Virus record (IMG/VR): IMGVR_UViG_3300005282_000001
Location: 1 to 64,000 of that record
DNA length: 64,000 bases
Origin: a virus
Lineage: Duplodnaviria > Caudoviricetes
Strand: one strand, 5' to 3'
Positions 1,589 to 16,426 of the stretch are shown one piece after another. Every line of letters starts with the position of its first letter. The stretch's first letter is position 1. The notes under the pieces were generated by a model. The model was given only the letters and a program-made list of their open reading frames with translations. It was not told where the DNA came from and did no database searches. The position numbers and the translations under genes are program-made.

Positions 1589-1617
1589 TTGACATTGGTA
1601 CCTATATATGCTATTAT
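1589..1617 (+). promoter_or_regulatory. Early promoter P1
   Basis: TTGACA-17 bp-TATTAT with extended -10 TG. Confidence 0.8.
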
Positions 1618-1670: not shown

Positions 1671-1699
1671 TTGACATCTTATGTACCATATGATATAAT
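1671..1699 (+). promoter_or_regulatory. Early promoter P2 (perfect consensus)
   Basis: TTGACA-17 bp-TATAAT with extended -10 TG. Confidence 0.9.
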
Positions 1700-1749: not shown

Positions 1750-1989
1750 ATGAAACCAGAAGAAATGACTTACAGACAATTGTATACTAATAGAAAGCGT
1801 AAAGACGTTCAAGAGTATATCGAACGGATTACAGAAAGAAGCACAACAGCAGCAGATGGATCATTAGTTTTTCATATTTTGCTTGATGGTAAAATAATTG
1901 TATCTACTAATCTTCCTAGCAAAGCAGAAAAGGGGTACAATAGTTACGTAAGAGAACAACGAATAAACAAAAGAACCTGTCGAAACTAG
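1750..1989 (+). CDS. Hypothetical early protein
   Basis: First ORF after P1/P2; start uncertain (1741, 1750 or 1765); stop TAG lies in hammerhead stem III. Confidence 0.65.
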   Translation: MKPEEMTYRQLYTNRKRKDVQEYIERITERSTTAADGSLVFHILLDGKIIVSTNLPSKAEKGYNSYVREQRINKRTCRN

Positions 1990-2054
1990 GGCTAATCCCC
2001 TAGTCTACCGTTGAGTGGTCCTCACGGTGCTGATGAGACAAACTGAGGTGGCCA
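1975..2054 (+). ncRNA. Hammerhead ribozyme, type II
   Basis: Stem II TGTC(1978-81)/GACA(2037-40); GAAA 1982-85; stem III CTAGGG/CCCTAG; GUC triplet 2003-05; stem I TACCG/CGGTG plus TGAG/CTCA; core CTGATGA 2030-36; loop I TGGTC can pair with GGCCA (2050-54). Confidence 0.9.
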
Positions 2055-2086
2055 GGGATACGCTGGCACTCACAAGGAGATACATC

Positions 2087-2422
2087 ATAAAACAAAAGTA
2101 TACTTATAAAGCCATTCGCAACATGGGATTACCAGTGCTTGCCATTGGATACTGCGACTTACAAACGTTATTCCCTGAAACAGATGCATTCGGATATTCG
2201 TCAGGAACTAATGGTTGGAACTGTAATTATCATAGGACCTATGGGGGAAGCAGAGCCATTGTAAGCACTGGATATCGTCCAATAGGGACAACGGTTCCCC
2301 GTGATATTGTGAAGAAATACGAAGCAAAAGCAAGGGAACTTCCTACAAGCTTATCTTTTGATCGTATAGAGAAACTTTGTGAGTTACAAAAGGACTTCAT
2401 AGTAGAAGCATTAGCCGTCTGA
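2087..2422 (+). CDS. Conserved-looking phage hypothetical protein (GYCxLQ...GWN...STGYRP motifs), bracketed by ribozymes
   Basis: ORF-track frame 2015-2422; the best SD AAGGAG (2074-79) points to ATA at 2087; stop TGA is part of the second hammerhead core. Confidence 0.75.
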   Translation: MKQKYTYKAIRNMGLPVLAIGYCDLQTLFPETDAFGYSSGTNGWNCNYHRTYGGSRAIVSTGYRPIGTTVPRDIVKKYEAKARELPTSLSFDRIEKLCELQKDFIVEALAV

Positions 2423-2472
2423 AGAGTCGCTGAGAATTGCGACGAAACGCCTTCGGGCGTCACGGCAACTGC
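2408..2472 (+). ncRNA. Hammerhead ribozyme, type I
   Basis: GCCGT-CTGAAGA-GTCGC-TGAGAATT-GCGAC-GAAA-CGCC-TTCG-GGCG-TC-ACGGC: all core nucleotides and three stems present; predicted cleavage after C2461. Confidence 0.93.
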
Positions 2473-2593
2473 ACACGTTTCCTTCGATCCTTGGGTGCAC
2501 CGAGGAGATGACAAGGGGTACAAGCGGAATCCAGCAGAGGAGCCGACGGATAAAAACAGAGGAATTCTGCTGGATAGCCTAAGAATACAATAG

Positions 2594-2641: not shown

Positions 2642-2767
2642 ATGATTAACTCAAAATACCTTGTCAAGCTTCAGATTTTACTCAGCACGAAACGCATAAT
2701 CCGCAAGGGAATGCAAGTGGATACGTCAGAATTCAATGAGGTACAGCAGAAATGGCTAAGAAGCTAA
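2642..2767 (+). CDS. Small hypothetical protein (41 aa)
   Basis: Hand-translated MINSKYLVKLQILL...; SD-like site provided by element copy 1. Confidence 0.5.
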   Translation: MINSKYLVKLQILLSTKRIIRKGMQVDTSEFNEVQQKWLRS

Positions 2768-2811: not shown

Positions 2812-3642
2812 ATGGTAAAAGGATATAAGGTATTTAACAGTGACTGGACGTGTAGAGATGGTTTTAAGTACAAGGTGGGGGAAACGTATACCCAAGATGG
2901 AAAACTGGAGGTTTGCGGCAATGGATTGCACTTCTGCAAAAAGGCCGTTGATTGCTTTAATTATTATAGTTTTGATTCTTCAAATCATGTTGCTGAAGTG
3001 GTTGCCTATGGGAAAATAGCAGAACAGGGTGATAAATGTTGTACAAATAAACTAAAGGTTGTTGGGGAAATTTCGTGGCAGGAGGTATTAAACTTAGTCA
3101 ACACAGGAGACGACAACACAGGCTACCGCAACACAGGTAGCTTCAACACAGGTAACTTCAACACAGGCTACCGCAACACAGGTAACTTCAACACAGGTGA
3201 CCGCAACACAGGAGACGATAACACAGGTAACTTCAACACAGGTAACCGCAACACAGGCTACTTCAACACAGGTAACCGCAACACAGGTGATTGCAATATT
3301 TCAAACCATGAAACTGGAGTTTTTTGCACAGAAGAACATAAGATTCGTATATTCGATATTGAATCGGATATTACTTTTGAAGAATGGAGAGATTCCAGGG
3401 CATATTGGATATTATCTAAAGTGCTACTAATAGAGTGGGTTGAAGAGTATAGTATGACAGACGGAGAAAAAAGCAAACACCTAGAGTATAAAACTACTGG
3501 AGGGTATTTAAAGAAAGTTGATTTATTTTCTGCTTATGCTGCATGGTGGAAAAATCTTAGCGATGCTGACAAGAGTACCATTAAATCTATCCCAAACTTT
3601 AACTCTAAGAAATTTAAGATAATCACTGGAATCGAAGTATAG
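2812..3642 (+). CDS. Pentapeptide (NTGxx) repeat protein
   Basis: 13 tandem NTGxx units; GAGGAG SD. Confidence 0.85.
   Translation: MVKGYKVFNSDWTCRDGFKYKVGETYTQDGKLEVCGNGLHFCKKAVDCFNYYSFDSSNHVAEVVAYGKIAEQGDKCCTNKLKVVGEISWQEVLNLVNTGDDNTGYRNTGSFNTGNFNTGYRNTGNFNTGDRNTGDDNTGNFNTGNRNTGYFNTGNRNTGDCNISNHETGVFCTEEHKIRIFDIESDITFEEWRDSRAYWILSKVLLIEWVEEYSMTDGEKSKHLEYKTTGGYLKKVDLFSAYAAWWKNLSDADKSTIKSIPNFNSKKFKIITGIEV
3100..3294 (+). repeat. 15-bp coding tandem repeat x13
   Basis: AACACAGGnnnnnnn units encoding NTGxx. Confidence 0.95.
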
Positions 3643-4665: not shown

Positions 4666-5051
4666 TTACTAAAGAAATGGAAGAGATTATCGTGGGATAC
4701 AACGGAATACTTAAGAATCTAGAGAATGACATAAGAAGCACCGAGGCTAAACTTAAGCATAACCACTTGAAAACTGTTGACTTGATGCACGAGGCTGACC
4801 CTAGAAATCACATTGAGGGGATGCCTAGGAAACGTAAGGTAGACTCAAGAATCGCCATGTCACTTGGGTTAAAACTCAAGGAACTTGCAATGGAACATAG
4901 GGACCTTAAGGATGAACTAGAGTTGCTCAAGGTAATCCAGCAGCAATTTCCTGAGAACTCCAAAGGTAAGACAGCGGTATCTAATGTATCCTCGTTTGTA
5001 CAGTGCGGGAAAACTAGAAAATACACAAGAAGAGTGGAGGAAAACAAATGA
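4662..5051 (+). CDS. Hypothetical coiled-coil protein
   Basis: GGAGG SD, ATGA overlaps. Confidence 0.7.
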   Translation: MITKEMEEIIVGYNGILKNLENDIRSTEAKLKHNHLKTVDLMHEADPRNHIEGMPRKRKVDSRIAMSLGLKLKELAMEHRDLKDELELLKVIQQQFPENSKGKTAVSNVSSFVQCGKTRKYTRRVEENK

Positions 5052-5482
5052 ACACAACGCTAAGCATCAGAAACCACACGTACACCTGCGACATCTCAGA
5101 ATCCGGCAAGACTACCTTTGAGCACTATGGGGAATTCATGAAGTATATCCATGACATTATCCAAGAATTACAAGAGGATTTTCCAGCGTTATTTCCTGAG
5201 AAACCTCAGCCGAAACTTCCGCTTGCTATTGGAATCCACAAGGAACTTGCAACGTGGGCTCAGGTACTAGGGGTATCCAAAAGGAACTTAGGTATTGCGT
5301 TAGGTAGCTGGACAAAAGGTAAGAGGTACCAGGCGGCCCTCAAGGTAGGCAAGGAGTTAAACATAAGATTTGGCGTTGGGTACCGTAAGAATGTCGTGAG
5401 CGTTCATCCGTATAACAAAAGAGATAAACGGTTGCGTAAGACGCAACGGGCGACCGAAGGGAAGCAGGAGGAAGACAAATGA
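5048..5482 (+). CDS. ProQ/FinO-family RNA-binding domain protein
   Basis: FPALF..PLAIGIHKEL...SKRNLGIALGSWT...RYQAAL..G..R resembles the ProQ/FinO consensus (FP.cF..PLKiGI...lr.AL..yt...rYL). Confidence 0.7.
   Translation: MNTTLSIRNHTYTCDISESGKTTFEHYGEFMKYIHDIIQELQEDFPALFPEKPQPKLPLAIGIHKELATWAQVLGVSKRNLGIALGSWTKGKRYQAALKVGKELNIRFGVGYRKNVVSVHPYNKRDKRLRKTQRATEGKQEEDK
5429..5471 (+). repeat. Double-hairpin/RBS element, copy 3
   Basis: CG-GTTGCGT-AAG-ACGCAAC-GGG-CGACCGAAGGGAAG-CAGGAGG; compensatory changes relative to copy 2. Confidence 0.9.
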
Positions 5483-11831: not shown

Positions 11832-12566
11832 ATGGCAAAAGATATACAGATGTTTACAAATGAAAACTTTGGGAATGTAAGAGTAATTGAAGAAAATGGT
11901 AAAGTATTATTCGTGGGGTCAGATGTGGCTAAAGCGTTGGGGTACTCCAATAGAACCGATGCTATTGCAAGACATTGTAGGTGTGTCGTGAAACGCGATA
12001 TACCTCATCCACAAAACAATAGTACAACACAAGAGGTCAGTGTTATCACTGAGGGCGACATGTACCGCTTGATTACCCATAGTAAACTACCAGAGGCTCA
12101 AAAGTTTGAATCATGGGTATTTGATGAGGTTCTCCCAAGTATCCGCAAGAGTGGCACGTATTCCCTTGTACCCGACAGTTATACCATTGAAGACCCAATT
12201 GAACGTGCTAAGGCTTGGATAGGGGAACAAGAGAAACATCGTGCGGAAATTGCTGTGTTAGCTCCAAAGGCTGCTTTCTTTGATGATGTAGCGGATTCCA
12301 AGAGTGCCATTAGTATGTCAGAGGTTGCAAAGGTACTTGCGATTCCTAGTGTAGGACGTAACAAACTCTTTGGGTTACTGAGGGAACACAAGGTGCTCAT
12401 GAGTGACAACAGACCATACCAGAGATACATTGATAACGGATGGTTCCGTATGGTTGAACAAAAGTATTCTAAGGAGAATGGGGATACTGTTGTAACCACA
12501 AAGGCTCTTGTGTTCCAAAAGGGAGTCGATGGGATTCGTAAGGTAATTGGAAAGGGGAACATATGA
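11832..12566 (+). CDS. BRO-N / KilA-C antirepressor
   Basis: FGNVRVI...FVGSDVAKALGY, EGDMYRLI..S.LPEAQKFESWVFDEVLPSIRK (BRO-N) plus KilA-C. Confidence 0.92.
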   Translation: MAKDIQMFTNENFGNVRVIEENGKVLFVGSDVAKALGYSNRTDAIARHCRCVVKRDIPHPQNNSTTQEVSVITEGDMYRLITHSKLPEAQKFESWVFDEVLPSIRKSGTYSLVPDSYTIEDPIERAKAWIGEQEKHRAEIAVLAPKAAFFDDVADSKSAISMSEVAKVLAIPSVGRNKLFGLLREHKVLMSDNRPYQRYIDNGWFRMVEQKYSKENGDTVVTTKALVFQKGVDGIRKVIGKGNI

Positions 12567-15500
12567 GTTACTGTAGTCTCCACTGCCATACCGACCAGAG
12601 CCTCCTAGACGGGTACGAAACGATCCAAGAGCTCGTAGGGCGTGCAAAGGAACTTGGGTATCCAGCAGTAGGCTTATCGGACCATGGGACAATGCGAGGG
12701 GTTGTCAAGTTTTACAAGGAGTGCCAAGCAGCCGGAGTGAAACCTATTGTTGGTTGCGAGTTTTACTTTTGCCCCGATGTGACAATCAAGAGTAAGAACT
12801 ATCACTTACTTTTGTTCGCTATGGATAACACAGGATACATGAACTTGAAACTGCTGGATTCCTTTGCATATCGTGAGGAGAACTTCCACAATCGCCCAAG
12901 GATTGACGAGGATATCCTGCGGGAACATAGCGAAGGCATTGTATGCCTAACAGCTTGTATGGCGTCTATTGTGAATACTGAAGTTGGTGAAGAGTGGCTG
13001 CTGAAATTTAAGGATATCTTTGGCGACCGCCTATTCGCTGAGATTCAACCGTTGAACCTTGAGAAACAGCAGGTATACAATGGTAAAGTCGTGGAACTCG
13101 CAAGGAAACATGGGGTTCCATTAGTAGTTACCACAGATGCTCATTACGCTCGCAAGGAAGATGAAAAGTATCACCAGGCGTGGACTATGATTCATGGGTT
13201 CCGCTATGATGACTATGAGAATTACTTATGGAGCGAAGAGGAAATCAGAAGTACCTCATGGATTCCTAAAGACACCATAGAGGAAGCAATAGGAAATACG
13301 CAACGAATCGCTGATATGTGTAATGTTACCATAGAAGTTGAAGGGAATCACTTTCCTAAGTATCCTGTAGAGAATGCGGTGGAAAAAGTTAAGGAAATCT
13401 GTAGAGAAAACTTTAGAGAACTAGTGCCACAAGGGAAATACAAGGAATATGGTGAGAGGTTCCATGATGAACTTAGGGTACTCGAAAAGTTAGACTACTT
13501 GAATTACATGTTAATCGTATGGGACCTTATGGAATGGTGCAAGAACAATAGTATACCCACTGGTTATGGCAGAGGAAGTGCCAGTGGTTCACTTGTTGGA
13601 TATCTTATGAGATTACACAAGATTGACCCTATAAAGTACGGAGTTGAGTTCTTTAGATTTGCTAATGAGTTCAGAAAAACCACGGCCGACATAGATTCAG
13701 ATGTTTCCCGTAGACATCGCGGGGAAATTATAGAGTACGTTAAGAAACGCTATGGAACAGTTACCAAGGTTCAAACTTTAGGGTATACTAAAAATCCCGA
13801 GAAGAATGATGTAGGTAAAGCAGCGGTACTTAAGGCTGTTCAGAGTCTTGGTGAGTTTGAGAAGGAATCCACAGGAGAAAAAGAAGCATTCATATGGACT
13901 CGTAAGAAAGCTATGGTAATTACAAAGAATCTACAAGAATCTCTTGAGGAAATCCTTACGATCCCATCAGAGTTTACGCAAGAGCAACGTGAGGAACTGC
14001 TAGATATCGCAACACATTTCTTAGGGCGTGTGGTTATGACAGGTTGCCATGCAAGTGCTGTAGTTGTTACTCCAGATGCCATAGAAAACTATTGTCCTGT
14101 TGAGGGAGCAAAAGTTCGTGATGCATCTACTGGAGAAACAACTTATACTTCTATGGCTGGCTATGAATACCACACAGTTGAAGAAATGGGACTTATGAAA
14201 CTTGATATACTTGGGTTGAATACTTTGGATATCATTGATGATGCCGTAAAGTACATTAAGGAGTTCCAAGGGATTGATGTGGATATTGACAAGATTATAT
14301 TTGATGATCCAAAGGTGTTCGCAGAGTACGCAGCGGGAGAAACTACAGGGTTCTTCCAGATGGAATCATCAGGTATGCGTAAGTTAGCTAAGGATATGAA
14401 TGTATCAAGCTTTAAGGATACTTCTGCACTCGTGGCGTTGTTCCGTCCAGGCCCACTTGGTTCTGGTATGGCTCAACAGTATGTCGATGGTAAAAATGGG
14501 GTAGAAATAAAGTATCCCAATGAAGCTATGAAGAAACACACGGAAGAAACATTTGGGGTTCTTGTGTATCAAGAGCAGATCATGAAGGTTGCTATGGATA
14601 TGTGCGGATGGGACTTAGGGCAAGCAGATACTCTTAGGAAAATCATAGGACGCAAGGAAGTCACTAAGATAAATGAGATAACAGAACAATTCATTGTGGA
14701 TTCTGTGAAGAATGGCGAAGATGAATCAGTTGCAAAAAAAGTAGCGGAACAAATAAAATCTGCTGGTAACTATGTTTTTAATAGATGTTTAAGCGGCAGA
14801 GAAACTATAAAACGCCAGACAATGAATGGTAGGTTCATGTCAATTGGTGAAATTTATAAAACTATGTATGATAAGCAGTGGGCTAAAGAGAATGGACATG
14901 CTGACTTACATTCCAAATACAAGAGGAACGGTTATGGCGGCGGATTATCAATGATTGATGGGAAGATACTTCCGAATAAAATAGTTGACATAAGGTACAC
15001 AGGAGAAATGGAAGTATACTTAGTGACTACAGAAACTGGTAAGAAACTAAGATGCACTATGAATCATAAGATACCAACGCCAAATGGTATAAAACAACTG
15101 TCAGAAATATCAGTTGGAGAACTTTTGTATGTCGATGGTGGCTATGATGCTTCTAAGAATAACTATAATTTGTATTCTGAGTTAATGCCAGTGAACGCCG
15201 AAGTTGGACATGCCGGATTCACAAATAGACCAAATGGTAACTCAGTTAAGTTTGCAGACGCTAGATATTTTATGAAGAACATGATGGCTCCATGTGAACG
15301 CTGCGGTAAAATCTCTGGTTACAAAGCTGGATTTGAGTTACATCATATTGACAAGGATCGCGAGAATAATTCCAATGAAAACCTCATGTGGTTATGCAAT
15401 GGTTGTCACAAGAAGGAACATTACGCAAACGGTAGAACCAAAAGAGGCGAAAAGGGGCATTTGCTAGCAACAGAATCAATAGTATCTATAGAGTACGAAT

Positions 15501-16426
15501 GTACTGAAGATTGCTATGATGTTGAAATGGAAGCTCCTAATCACAACTTTGTTACAGGCGGAGGAATTATAGTATGTAATTGTCACGCTGTAAGTTACTC
15601 AGCAGTTTCCTACATTACTGCTTATCTCAAGACATATTACCCAAGAGAGTACCTGTGTGCTACCTTGAACTCCAAGGATGACCAAAAGAAAATCATACCA
15701 TACGTCAATGAACTCAAGCGTCTTAAGATTCCCTTGTATCCACCAGACTTATCCATAGGAAACCGCAGATGGACATTAGAATCTGATGGTATCCGCGTGG
15801 GACTTGAGTATATCAGCGGAGTTGGCAAGAATCTCAAGACAGAGCATGTGGATACATTTGAATCCGTAGTGGAATCCAACACGAAAACTTGTGTAATCCC
15901 ATGTATCAAAGCAGGTGCCTTAGATTACCTTGGGTTATCACGTGCGGTTATGCTTGCGAAGTTCGCTGGTACACAAGAGAGTCTCAAGAGGGTACAGCAG
16001 TGCCAAGAGAAGATACAGCAGTACACAGGTGACCCTAAGAAGCTTAAGAACCTTCAGCAGTGGCAAGAGAAACTTAAGGATGCTCAAGAGATTCAGCAGG
16101 TCACTCCTGAGAAATACGATGTGACTGCTGGTGAGTGCGAAGTGTTATCCTTTAGTTTTCATGAGATTCCAAAGGTAAAAACTGGTGTAGTTACAAATGT
16201 GTTCACAAAGAATGATAAGAATTCACGAGAAATGGGATGGATTACCTTCAGTACAAACTATGGGGAATTCAGATGTACTGTATTTGCAGACGGATGGGAG
16301 CGTGTGGGTGCTCATGTAAAGCAAGGGGAATCATATAAGTTTGTCGTGAATGACAAGGGGATTCTTGAGGAATTACAAGTGGATGGTAAGGTAATCAAAG
16401 TAAACGAAAGAAGGTACAAGAGATGA
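12563..16426 (+). CDS. dnaE: DNA polymerase III alpha subunit (family C), intein-containing
   Basis: PHP HCHTDQSLLDG, GRGSASGS, DIDSD, KLDILGL, FNR/CHA split by an intein. Confidence 0.95.
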   Translation: MSYCSLHCHTDQSLLDGYETIQELVGRAKELGYPAVGLSDHGTMRGVVKFYKECQAAGVKPIVGCEFYFCPDVTIKSKNYHLLLFAMDNTGYMNLKLLDSFAYREENFHNRPRIDEDILREHSEGIVCLTACMASIVNTEVGEEWLLKFKDIFGDRLFAEIQPLNLEKQQVYNGKVVELARKHGVPLVVTTDAHYARKEDEKYHQAWTMIHGFRYDDYENYLWSEEEIRSTSWIPKDTIEEAIGNTQRIADMCNVTIEVEGNHFPKYPVENAVEKVKEICRENFRELVPQGKYKEYGERFHDELRVLEKLDYLNYMLIVWDLMEWCKNNSIPTGYGRGSASGSLVGYLMRLHKIDPIKYGVEFFRFANEFRKTTADIDSDVSRRHRGEIIEYVKKRYGTVTKVQTLGYTKNPEKNDVGKAAVLKAVQSLGEFEKESTGEKEAFIWTRKKAMVITKNLQESLEEILTIPSEFTQEQREELLDIATHFLGRVVMTGCHASAVVVTPDAIENYCPVEGAKVRDASTGETTYTSMAGYEYHTVEEMGLMKLDILGLNTLDIIDDAVKYIKEFQGIDVDIDKIIFDDPKVFAEYAAGETTGFFQMESSGMRKLAKDMNVSSFKDTSALVALFRPGPLGSGMAQQYVDGKNGVEIKYPNEAMKKHTEETFGVLVYQEQIMKVAMDMCGWDLGQADTLRKIIGRKEVTKINEITEQFIVDSVKNGEDESVAKKVAEQIKSAGNYVFNRCLSGRETIKRQTMNGRFMSIGEIYKTMYDKQWAKENGHADLHSKYKRNGYGGGLSMIDGKILPNKIVDIRYTGEMEVYLVTTETGKKLRCTMNHKIPTPNGIKQLSEISVGELLYVDGGYDASKNNYNLYSELMPVNAEVGHAGFTNRPNGNSVKFADARYFMKNMMAPCERCGKISGYKAGFELHHIDKDRENNSNENLMWLCNGCHKKEHYANGRTKRGEKGHLLATESIVSIEYECTEDCYDVEMEAPNHNFVTGGGIIVCNCHAVSYSAVSYITAYLKTYYPREYLCATLNSKDDQKKIIPYVNELKRLKIPLYPPDLSIGNRRWTLESDGIRVGLEYISGVGKNLKTEHVDTFESVVESNTKTCVIPCIKAGALDYLGLSRAVMLAKFAGTQESLKRVQQCQEKIQQYTGDPKKLKNLQQWQEKLKDAQEIQQVTPEKYDVTAGECEVLSFSFHEIPKVKTGVVTNVFTKNDKNSREMGWITFSTNYGEFRCTVFADGWERVGAHVKQGESYKFVVNDKGILEELQVDGKVIKVNERRYKR
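14786..15580 (+). mobile_element. Intein (265 aa) with HNH endonuclease in DnaE
   Basis: Starts CLSGRETI after VFNR; block B CTMNHKI; CERC...HHIDKDRENN...LCNGCHKKEH; ends NHNFV...IIVCN before +1 Cys. Confidence 0.92.

Follow-up and report, generated by a model that had tools for sequence, protein, structure and literature searches.

In coliphage T7, RNase III sites between the early genes cut the polycistronic transcript into single-gene mRNAs with structured 3' ends. Hammerhead ribozymes form clusters that flank single prophage genes, and such clusters cleave both in vitro and in E. coli (PMC3088659). In the triple cluster at ardA in Agrobacterium tumefaciens, ribozymes on the same strand lie around one small phage gene, and the role proposed for clusters of this type is that long transcripts are cut into single-gene mRNAs (PMC3088659). 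Processing of long phage transcripts is the role proposed for phage hammerheads in general (PMC3088659; PMC6765202), and the biological role of the thousands of phage and bacterial hammerheads is still open (PMC6765202). [quoted passage not shown] Stop codons are not mentioned in the description of the hammerhead clusters (0 occurrences in PMC3088659).

Here we analyze a hammerhead in an uncultivated phage. The window, by which we mean the whole stretch of DNA that was analyzed, is the first 64 kb of an IMG/VR virus record of 76,575 bp and encodes an integrase, an antirepressor, a ProQ/FinO-like protein and a DnaE-type polymerase. The gene for the ProQ/FinO-family RNA-binding protein lies at 5048-5482, and the DnaE-type polymerase gene (12563-16426) contains an intein that carries an HNH nuclease. 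An earlier note on this DNA had described a type I hammerhead at 2408-2472 whose core supplies the stop codon of the upstream ORF, and had proposed that cleavage after C2461 may be coupled to translation of that ORF. We find that the type I hammerhead, at 2414-2466, is an ordinary phage hammerhead in a known gene-flanking arrangement. The locus has the following features:

1589-1617, plus strand: sigma-70-like promoter, 11 of 12 consensus matches, extended -10 TG
1671-1699, plus strand: sigma-70-like promoter, 12 of 12 consensus matches, extended -10 TG
1750-1989, plus strand: first early ORF, 79 codons, with its stop codon UAG (1987-1989) in stem III of the type II hammerhead
1978-2047, plus strand: type II hammerhead preceding the 111-codon gene, supported by RF02276 and by stem conservation
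2050-2054, plus strand: GGCCA, candidate for a pseudoknot with UGGUC (2016-2020), which is loop I of the type II hammerhead
2087-2422, plus strand: flanked gene, 111 codons, with SD AAGGAG at 2074-2079 and stop codon TGA at 2420-2422
2414-2466, plus strand: type I hammerhead, predicted cleavage between C2461 and A2462
2479-2575, plus strand: structured non-coding leader, 17 nt 3' of the predicted cleavage site
2642-2767, plus strand: small ORF after the leader, 41 codons, product 72% identical in the relative L094

Results

Anatomy and fold of the type I hammerhead

The type I hammerhead consists of these elements, all on the plus strand:

2414-2418 and 2462-2466: stem I, GCCGU with ACGGC
2419-2425: core CUGAAGA, completed by GAAA at 2444-2447
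2420-2422: UGA, at once hammerhead core U4 G5 A6 and the stop codon of the gene
2426-2430 and 2439-2443: stem II, GUCGC with GCGAC, closed by loop UGAGAAUU at 2431-2438
2448-2451 and 2456-2459: stem III, CGCC with GGCG and a UUCG loop, extended by the pair A2447-U2460
2460-2461: U2460 and C2461, which precede the scissile bond, with C2461 directly before it

Each element of the hammerhead described in the earlier note was found in its place. The MFE fold also contains the extension of stem I that had been proposed, in which GCA (2408-2410) pairs with UGC (2470-2472), but the relatives L092 and L095 do not keep this extension, and we rejected it. The three-way junction is both the MFE and the centroid structure of 2400-2480, and the MFE fold of the longer segment 2360-2500 is the identical three-way junction. 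The topology is that of type I, in which loops close stems II and III and stem I stays open, both in the folds and in the alignment to our covariance model R1 (see below), which spans the full model. The type I core is defined by C3-U4-G5-A6-N7-G8-A9, G12-A13-A14, the pair A15.1-U16.1 and H17 before the scissile bond; at these places the window has CUGAAGA, GAAA, A2447-U2460 and C2461, the last being an H17 that is not G. Phage type I hammerheads (RF00163, clan CL00010; PMC3088659) have the same CUGANGA, GAAA, GUC triplet, three-way junction and open stem I. There is no structural difference between them and the copy described here, which misses only the Rfam gathering score. Overall, 2414-2466 is by its sequence a complete type I hammerhead of the active type, for which self-cleavage would be expected.

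Fast hammerhead cleavage at physiological Mg2+ needs a tertiary contact, or a pseudoknot, between stem I and loop II. The window hammerhead shares with more than 50 IMG/VR phage hammerheads a common stem II and loop II, GUCGC-UGARAAUU-GCGAC. The conservation of loop II across phage type I hammerheads suggests that it is a candidate for the tertiary contact; we identified no partner for this strongly conserved loop in stem I of the window hammerhead. More than 50 type I hammerheads from phages (L009-L091, IMG/VR) that are not related in other respects have a nearly identical stem II and loop II (GUCGC-UGAAAAUU-GCGAC), and stems I and III of these hammerheads vary freely. Some of the contigs (L054, L091) carry arrays of 9-11 type I hammerheads. 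We also considered a helix between 2389-2395 and 2420-2428 that would mask the core. It was rejected, being absent from the MFE fold of 2360-2500 and not kept in L092.

Statistical and comparative support for the type I hammerhead

An Rfam scan at gathering thresholds gave no match anywhere in the 64-kb window. In a search with an E-value cut-off, RF00163 (Hammerhead_1) scored the type I hammerhead with 17.6 bits, under its gathering score of 34, which is an operational threshold and not a defining feature of the hammerhead class. The RF00163 alignment puts the cleavage site of the model on the UC of the UUCG loop and not on U2460-C2461, and thereby misplaces stem III together with the 3' strand of stem I. 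Hence, the score is sub-threshold because the short model mis-registers stem III.

We gathered type I hammerheads from IMG/VR by a pattern of core and stem II, which returned 83 contigs, and a descriptor parse gave 113 matches. The covariance model R1 was built from 52 aligned non-redundant phage hammerheads, leaving out the window and its relatives. R1 scored the type I hammerhead with 64.6 bits (E 1.8e-17), its sole match in the 64-kb window, and scored the copies of the relatives with 58.5 bits (L092) and 64.0 bits (L095-97). A loose descriptor, with minimum stems of at least 4, 3 and 3 pairs, had 5 matches in 300 second-order Markov resamples, which corresponds to 0.017 per 64-kb window compared with 1 observed. 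In an alignment of 13 neighbourhood hits (12 distinct sequences), which was fitted to the model and is therefore biased towards it, 100% of the cells were paired and 9 of the 12 pairs were changed on both sides; slid controls paired in 27-39%. Compared to the window, L092 has a compensatory change from C-G to U-A in stem II (GUCGU/ACGAC), and L095 one from G-C to A-U in stem I (GCCAU/AUGGC). The earlier note had named common core mutations in close relatives as evidence that would speak against the ribozyme, and we found every core base intact in the window, L092 and L095. The motif at 2414-2466 is thus more than a chance match.

The stop codon in the core belongs to a conserved gene

As the earlier note had claimed, the UGA of CUGA is the stop codon of the upstream ORF: TGA 2420-2422 terminates an ORF that is open from 2015. 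Homologues of the encoded protein (n = 12, E down to 1e-63) are mostly about 113 amino acids long, end at the same position and have invariant Cys, Trp and GYRPIG positions. Judged by this conservation, the ORF upstream of the type I hammerhead is a real gene. The start of the family aligns to 2087, 7 nt past the strong SD. The start codon is ATG in all homologues, including the one in L092, and ATA in the window, so good translation of the window copy is uncertain. The gene with ATA at 2087-2089 may be weakly translated, may start elsewhere or be decaying, or the codon may be an assembly variant. The in-frame extension upstream of 2087, with GTG 2015 and ATG 2033, is ribozyme sequence and not a conserved N-terminus. 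The CUGAUGA core of the type II hammerhead contains an AUG (2033-2035) that shares the reading frame of the gene behind it, and this AUG evidently served as a gene caller's start (129-aa entry P0002).

The AF2 model of the flanked protein is confident, with a mean pLDDT of 87. The protein has no match in Pfam, PHROGs or PADLOC; a PDB sequence search gave chance-level rows only (E 0.57 or worse), Foldseek against PDB gave nothing at E <= 0.001, and all matches by ESM Atlas features were below 0.9. The first early ORF (1750-1989) likewise has no family match in Pfam, PHROGs and PADLOC. As predicted from their sequences, the two promoters upstream of this ORF would drive an operon that holds both ribozymes.

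A type II hammerhead on the 5' side of the gene

The second ribozyme, the type II hammerhead at 1978-2047, has these elements on the plus strand:

1979-1981 and 2037-2039: stem II, with GAAA at 1982-1985
1985-1991 and 1998-2004: stem III, with predicted cleavage after C2005
2006-2015 and 2021-2029: stem I, followed by the core CUGAUGA at 2030-2036

It has the core and the open stem II of the type II class. RF02276 scored it with 31.1 bits (E 0.0023 over 6 kb, 7e-6 per genome; gathering score 37), and the copies in L092 and L095 reached 39.1, 41.3 and 39.7 bits, all above the gathering score. In an alignment of 4 sequences, all three stems pair in 100% and 6 pairs are changed on both sides. A pseudoknot between loop I (2016-2020) and 2050-2054 is plausible from the sequence comparison, which comprises only 4 sequences, with 75% of the cells paired and 2 of the 5 pairs changed on both sides.

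The type I and type II hammerheads lie on one strand and bracket the 111-codon gene, which makes them a cluster in the sense of Perreault 2011. Beyond these two, no further hammerhead was found in the genome with the Rfam models RF00163 and RF02276 and with R1 in the window. Double cleavage at the predicted sites would release a 456-nt single-gene RNA, 2006-2461.

A stop codon in the core is a common layout

We took 80 non-redundant type I hammerheads of phages that have an ORF of at least 40 codons upstream of them and asked how often the stop codon of this ORF lies in the core. The upstream stop codon was:

the UGA of CUGA in 21 of 80
up to 10 nt before stem I in 35 of 80
in the 5' strand of stem I in 8 of 80
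more than 10 nt before stem I in 5 of 80
later in the hammerhead or beyond it in 11 of 80

Hence, 64 of the 80 hammerheads are placed flush with the upstream gene, with its stop codon as the core UGA, within 10 nt before stem I or inside stem I. The 21 core-UGA stops are spread over 15 contigs. ORFs that read into the ribozyme use the UGA frame in 21 of 33 cases compared with 11 expected (p about 4e-4, calculated on sequences that are not independent). Selection against ribozyme-encoded C-terminal tails would explain this excess: the core UGA is the earliest stop codon that any frame meets, so the trimming of tails would yield an excess of the UGA frame. Selection for the overlap would also explain it, but a coupling function is not required. 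The overlap with the stop codon is a common layout among phage hammerheads and not a special device.

Natural variants of the ribozyme slots

The relative L092 (76% protein identity) retains both ribozymes and the layout with the stop codon in the core. By blastn, window positions 1979-2465 correspond to L092 232-716 with 80% identity; the homology is bounded by the outer edges of the ribozymes, and none was found outside. As this homology extends exactly from ribozyme to ribozyme, the cassette is a mosaic unit. Such ribozyme-bounded genes may be exchanged as cassettes, for which the conserved ribozymes could serve as recombination joints.

In L094 the type II ribozyme is present, though truncated where the contig ends, and the type I hammerhead is missing; L093 has neither ribozyme. 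The last codons of the gene in L093 and L094 are still GCC GUC or GCU AUC, followed by a stop codon of their own. In both, the hammerhead slot is filled by two stable hairpins of ∼75 nt (z about -3), at 388-465 in L093 and 411-488 in L094. The two-hairpin element matched no Rfam family, even in a 126-nt search, and no other copy of either hairpin was found in IMG/VR. The element may act as an RNase III-type site or simply stabilise the 3' end, or it may be a ribozyme that has not yet been described.

In L095-97 (54% identity), the array is composed of a gene, a type II ribozyme, the homologue, another type II ribozyme, a 140-codon gene, 75 nt and a type I hammerhead. This type I hammerhead is of the same lineage as that of the window (83% identical) and is followed by the same leader, and no stop codon of any gene overlaps its core. 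Distant homologues of the flanked gene (∼42% identity) lie 2 nt from their neighbours and without flanking ribozymes, and their operons still hold type I hammerheads. A single-protein search of IMG/VR found no related loci, and profile searches of IMG/VR and metagenomes found only distant relatives (28-45% identical). On the gene strand of 47 more distant loci there are 16 more type I matches, typically with a stop codon directly 5' and the next SD directly 3'.

Ribozyme classes are also exchanged. Among the distant relatives of the locus, L102 has a pistol ribozyme at 3152-3218 (64.8 bits) in the syntenic slot of the type I hammerheads of L098-L101 (for example, L098 1510-1565 and L101 2059-2114), and this slot precedes the same 61-codon gene. 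The replacement of a hammerhead by a pistol ribozyme at one syntenic slot points to cleavage itself as the selected property. At equivalent slots we thus see an exchange of hammerhead types, the pistol ribozyme and possibly plain hairpins, which suggests that a cut or a structured end is selected and not a hammerhead-specific sequence such as the UGA. L102 also has a match to an HDV-like ribozyme (F. prausnitzii type) at 1691-1761, with 39.8 bits under a gathering score of 44.

A structured leader lies downstream of the type I hammerhead

The leader at 2479-2575 contains the helices 2479-2483/2514-2518, 2488-2494/2500-2506 and 2529-2538/2566-2575, the last of which has 10 bp and encloses a highly conserved loop. 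The leader is conserved in L093, L094 and L096, and 10 of its 29 predicted pairs are changed on both sides in 4 sequences. An indel in L096 moves the conserved block to another frame; therefore, the leader is not coding. We considered and rejected a 24-codon ORF starting from an ATG within 2507-2511, which is shifted in frame by the L096 indel and truncated in L094. The leader matched no Rfam family at E <= 5, and no further copy of its motif was found in IMG/VR or the 64-kb window.

Discussion

Our analysis suggests that the early operon of this uncultivated phage contains a cassette made up of the type II hammerhead, the 111-codon gene and the type I hammerhead, the last of which bounds the cassette on its 3' side. 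We think it probable that this ribozyme-bounded single-gene cassette serves in cutting the early transcript, and that the overlap with the stop codon is a consequence of packing. Transcription would begin at the promoters at ∼1600-1700 and, during or after it, the RNA would be cut after C2005 by the type II and after C2461 by the type I ribozyme. The two cuts would separate the polycistronic RNA into distinct fragments whose termini are 5'-OH and 2',3'-cyclic phosphate. The middle fragment, an mRNA of 456 nt, would have the hairpin of type II stem I at its 5' end and type I stems II and III at its 3' end, and the downstream piece would start 17 nt before the structured leader. These ends follow from the topologies: a type II hammerhead cuts 5' of its own stem I, so the excised mRNA would begin with a hairpin and a 5'-OH; with type I topology the predicted cut is 39 nt 3' of the stop codon, so the upstream mRNA would keep its stop codon and end in two stable hairpins. 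The stop codon presumably lies in the CUGA core because the ribozymes directly abut the gene before them and no stop codon in that frame comes earlier than the core UGA. The overlap would then be a consequence of packing and not a demonstrated control device. Both co-transcription of the cassette and a role of its cleavage in RNA processing or stability are proposed here from the arrangement of the locus.

The arrangement resembles the ardA-type clusters in that ribozymes on the same strand surround one small phage gene, with the same likely role. In contrast to those clusters, the pair in the window is mixed, type II followed by type I; its two upstream ORFs stop in conserved ribozyme sequence, with UAG in stem III and UGA in the core; and the block of homology with a relative stops exactly at the outer ribozyme edges. 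Unlike at the RNase III sites of T7, the RNA in the window would be cut by itself without a host nuclease, and it would be left with 5'-OH and 2',3'-cyclic phosphate ends, where RNase III leaves 5'-phosphate and 3'-OH. As in the interchangeable ribozyme classes, the pistol ribozyme of L102 and the type I hammerheads of L098-L101 share one slot with the same downstream gene, whereas the corresponding slot in L093 and L094 holds an element that matches no Rfam family.

We weighed translation-coupled cleavage, as the earlier note had proposed, in which ribosomes terminating on UGA 2420-2422 would unfold the 5' half of the ribozyme, and translation would set the rate or extent of the cut at C2461. 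A ribosome with this UGA in its A site would cover and unwind about 2405-2432. By this geometry, termination requires that the 5' strands of stems I and II and the core between them be unwound, leaving the ribozyme unfolded meanwhile. The part of the proposal by which the terminating ribosome covers the core is therefore true, as the stop codon is in the core, but such unfolding is a physical consequence for every flush hammerhead, and regulatory coupling has no support beyond this geometry. Coupling would be in line with the retention of the overlap in L092, with the ∼80% of phage type I hammerheads that overlap the upstream stop codon or sit within 10 nt of it, and with the enrichment of the core-UGA frame among ORFs that enter the ribozyme. 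The same layout is generic, however, and the flush packing is also seen on the 3' side against the next SD, as simple compaction predicts. A translation-gated ribozyme would have the overlap wherever its lineage occurs; it is kept in L092, but the same lineage in L095-97 lies 75 nt after a different gene without any overlap. Furthermore, L093 and L094 do without a hammerhead at this site, equivalent slots are taken by a pistol ribozyme and by elements that are not hammerheads, the core is masked by no alternative pairing that is conserved, and the ATA start makes translation of the window copy uncertain. The predicted cut, 39 nt 3' of the stop codon, would not remove the stop codon and lies outside the footprint of the terminating ribosome. 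We therefore regard coupling at this locus as unlikely. A broader version, in which flush placement is a designed coupling across phages and each cistron boundary is cleaved only in the gaps between ribosomes or under poor translation of the gene before it, appears quite unlikely to us.

The type I hammerhead could instead mainly give the leader and the small ORF behind it a defined 5'-OH end, with the overlap with the gene being incidental. The leader is conserved, structured and non-coding, and hammerhead and leader occur together behind a different gene in L096 (2413-2587 = L096 1156-1337). However, L092 has the hammerhead with another downstream sequence, and L093 and L094 have the leader without the hammerhead, which leaves this reading very unlikely as the main function; it is compatible with the processing of the cassette, the explanation we prefer. 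A circular 456-nt coding RNA would arise if both cuts were made and the ends were then joined, for instance by an RtcB-type ligase of the host. Hammerhead product ends suit RtcB, an enzyme cited in PMC8782182, and the excised unit holds the SD and the whole ORF. Yet circular or spliced products were sought from hammerhead clusters and none were found (PMC3088659), nothing in the sequence brings the two ends together, and there is no ligase gene among the ORFs scanned; we judge a circular product highly improbable. A chance match or an inactive relic is an extremely unlikely explanation of the motif. The sub-threshold RF00163 score and the missing partner for a tertiary contact would fit it, but the R1 score (64.6 bits), the resampling rate (0.017), the covariation in 9 of 12 pairs, the intact core positions in the window, L092 and L095 and the compensatory changes in the stems argue against it.

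The processing of a ribozyme-bounded cassette thus remains our preferred explanation. The locus goes slightly beyond the literature consulted in its quantified stop codon statistics, its ribozyme-bounded block of homology and the natural variants of the slot. If coupling were true at this locus, what becomes of the downstream RNA would be tied to translation upstream, and if it were true across phages, ribozyme cleavage would be a read-out of translation in phage early operons. With two ribozymes, one gene and strong predicted promoters, the locus is a compact test case, and its natural variants have a ribozyme with the stop codon overlap, a ribozyme without it, or another element in its place. 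The mutation G2421A would keep a stop codon (UAA) and destroy the invariant core G5, so that termination and catalysis would be separable.
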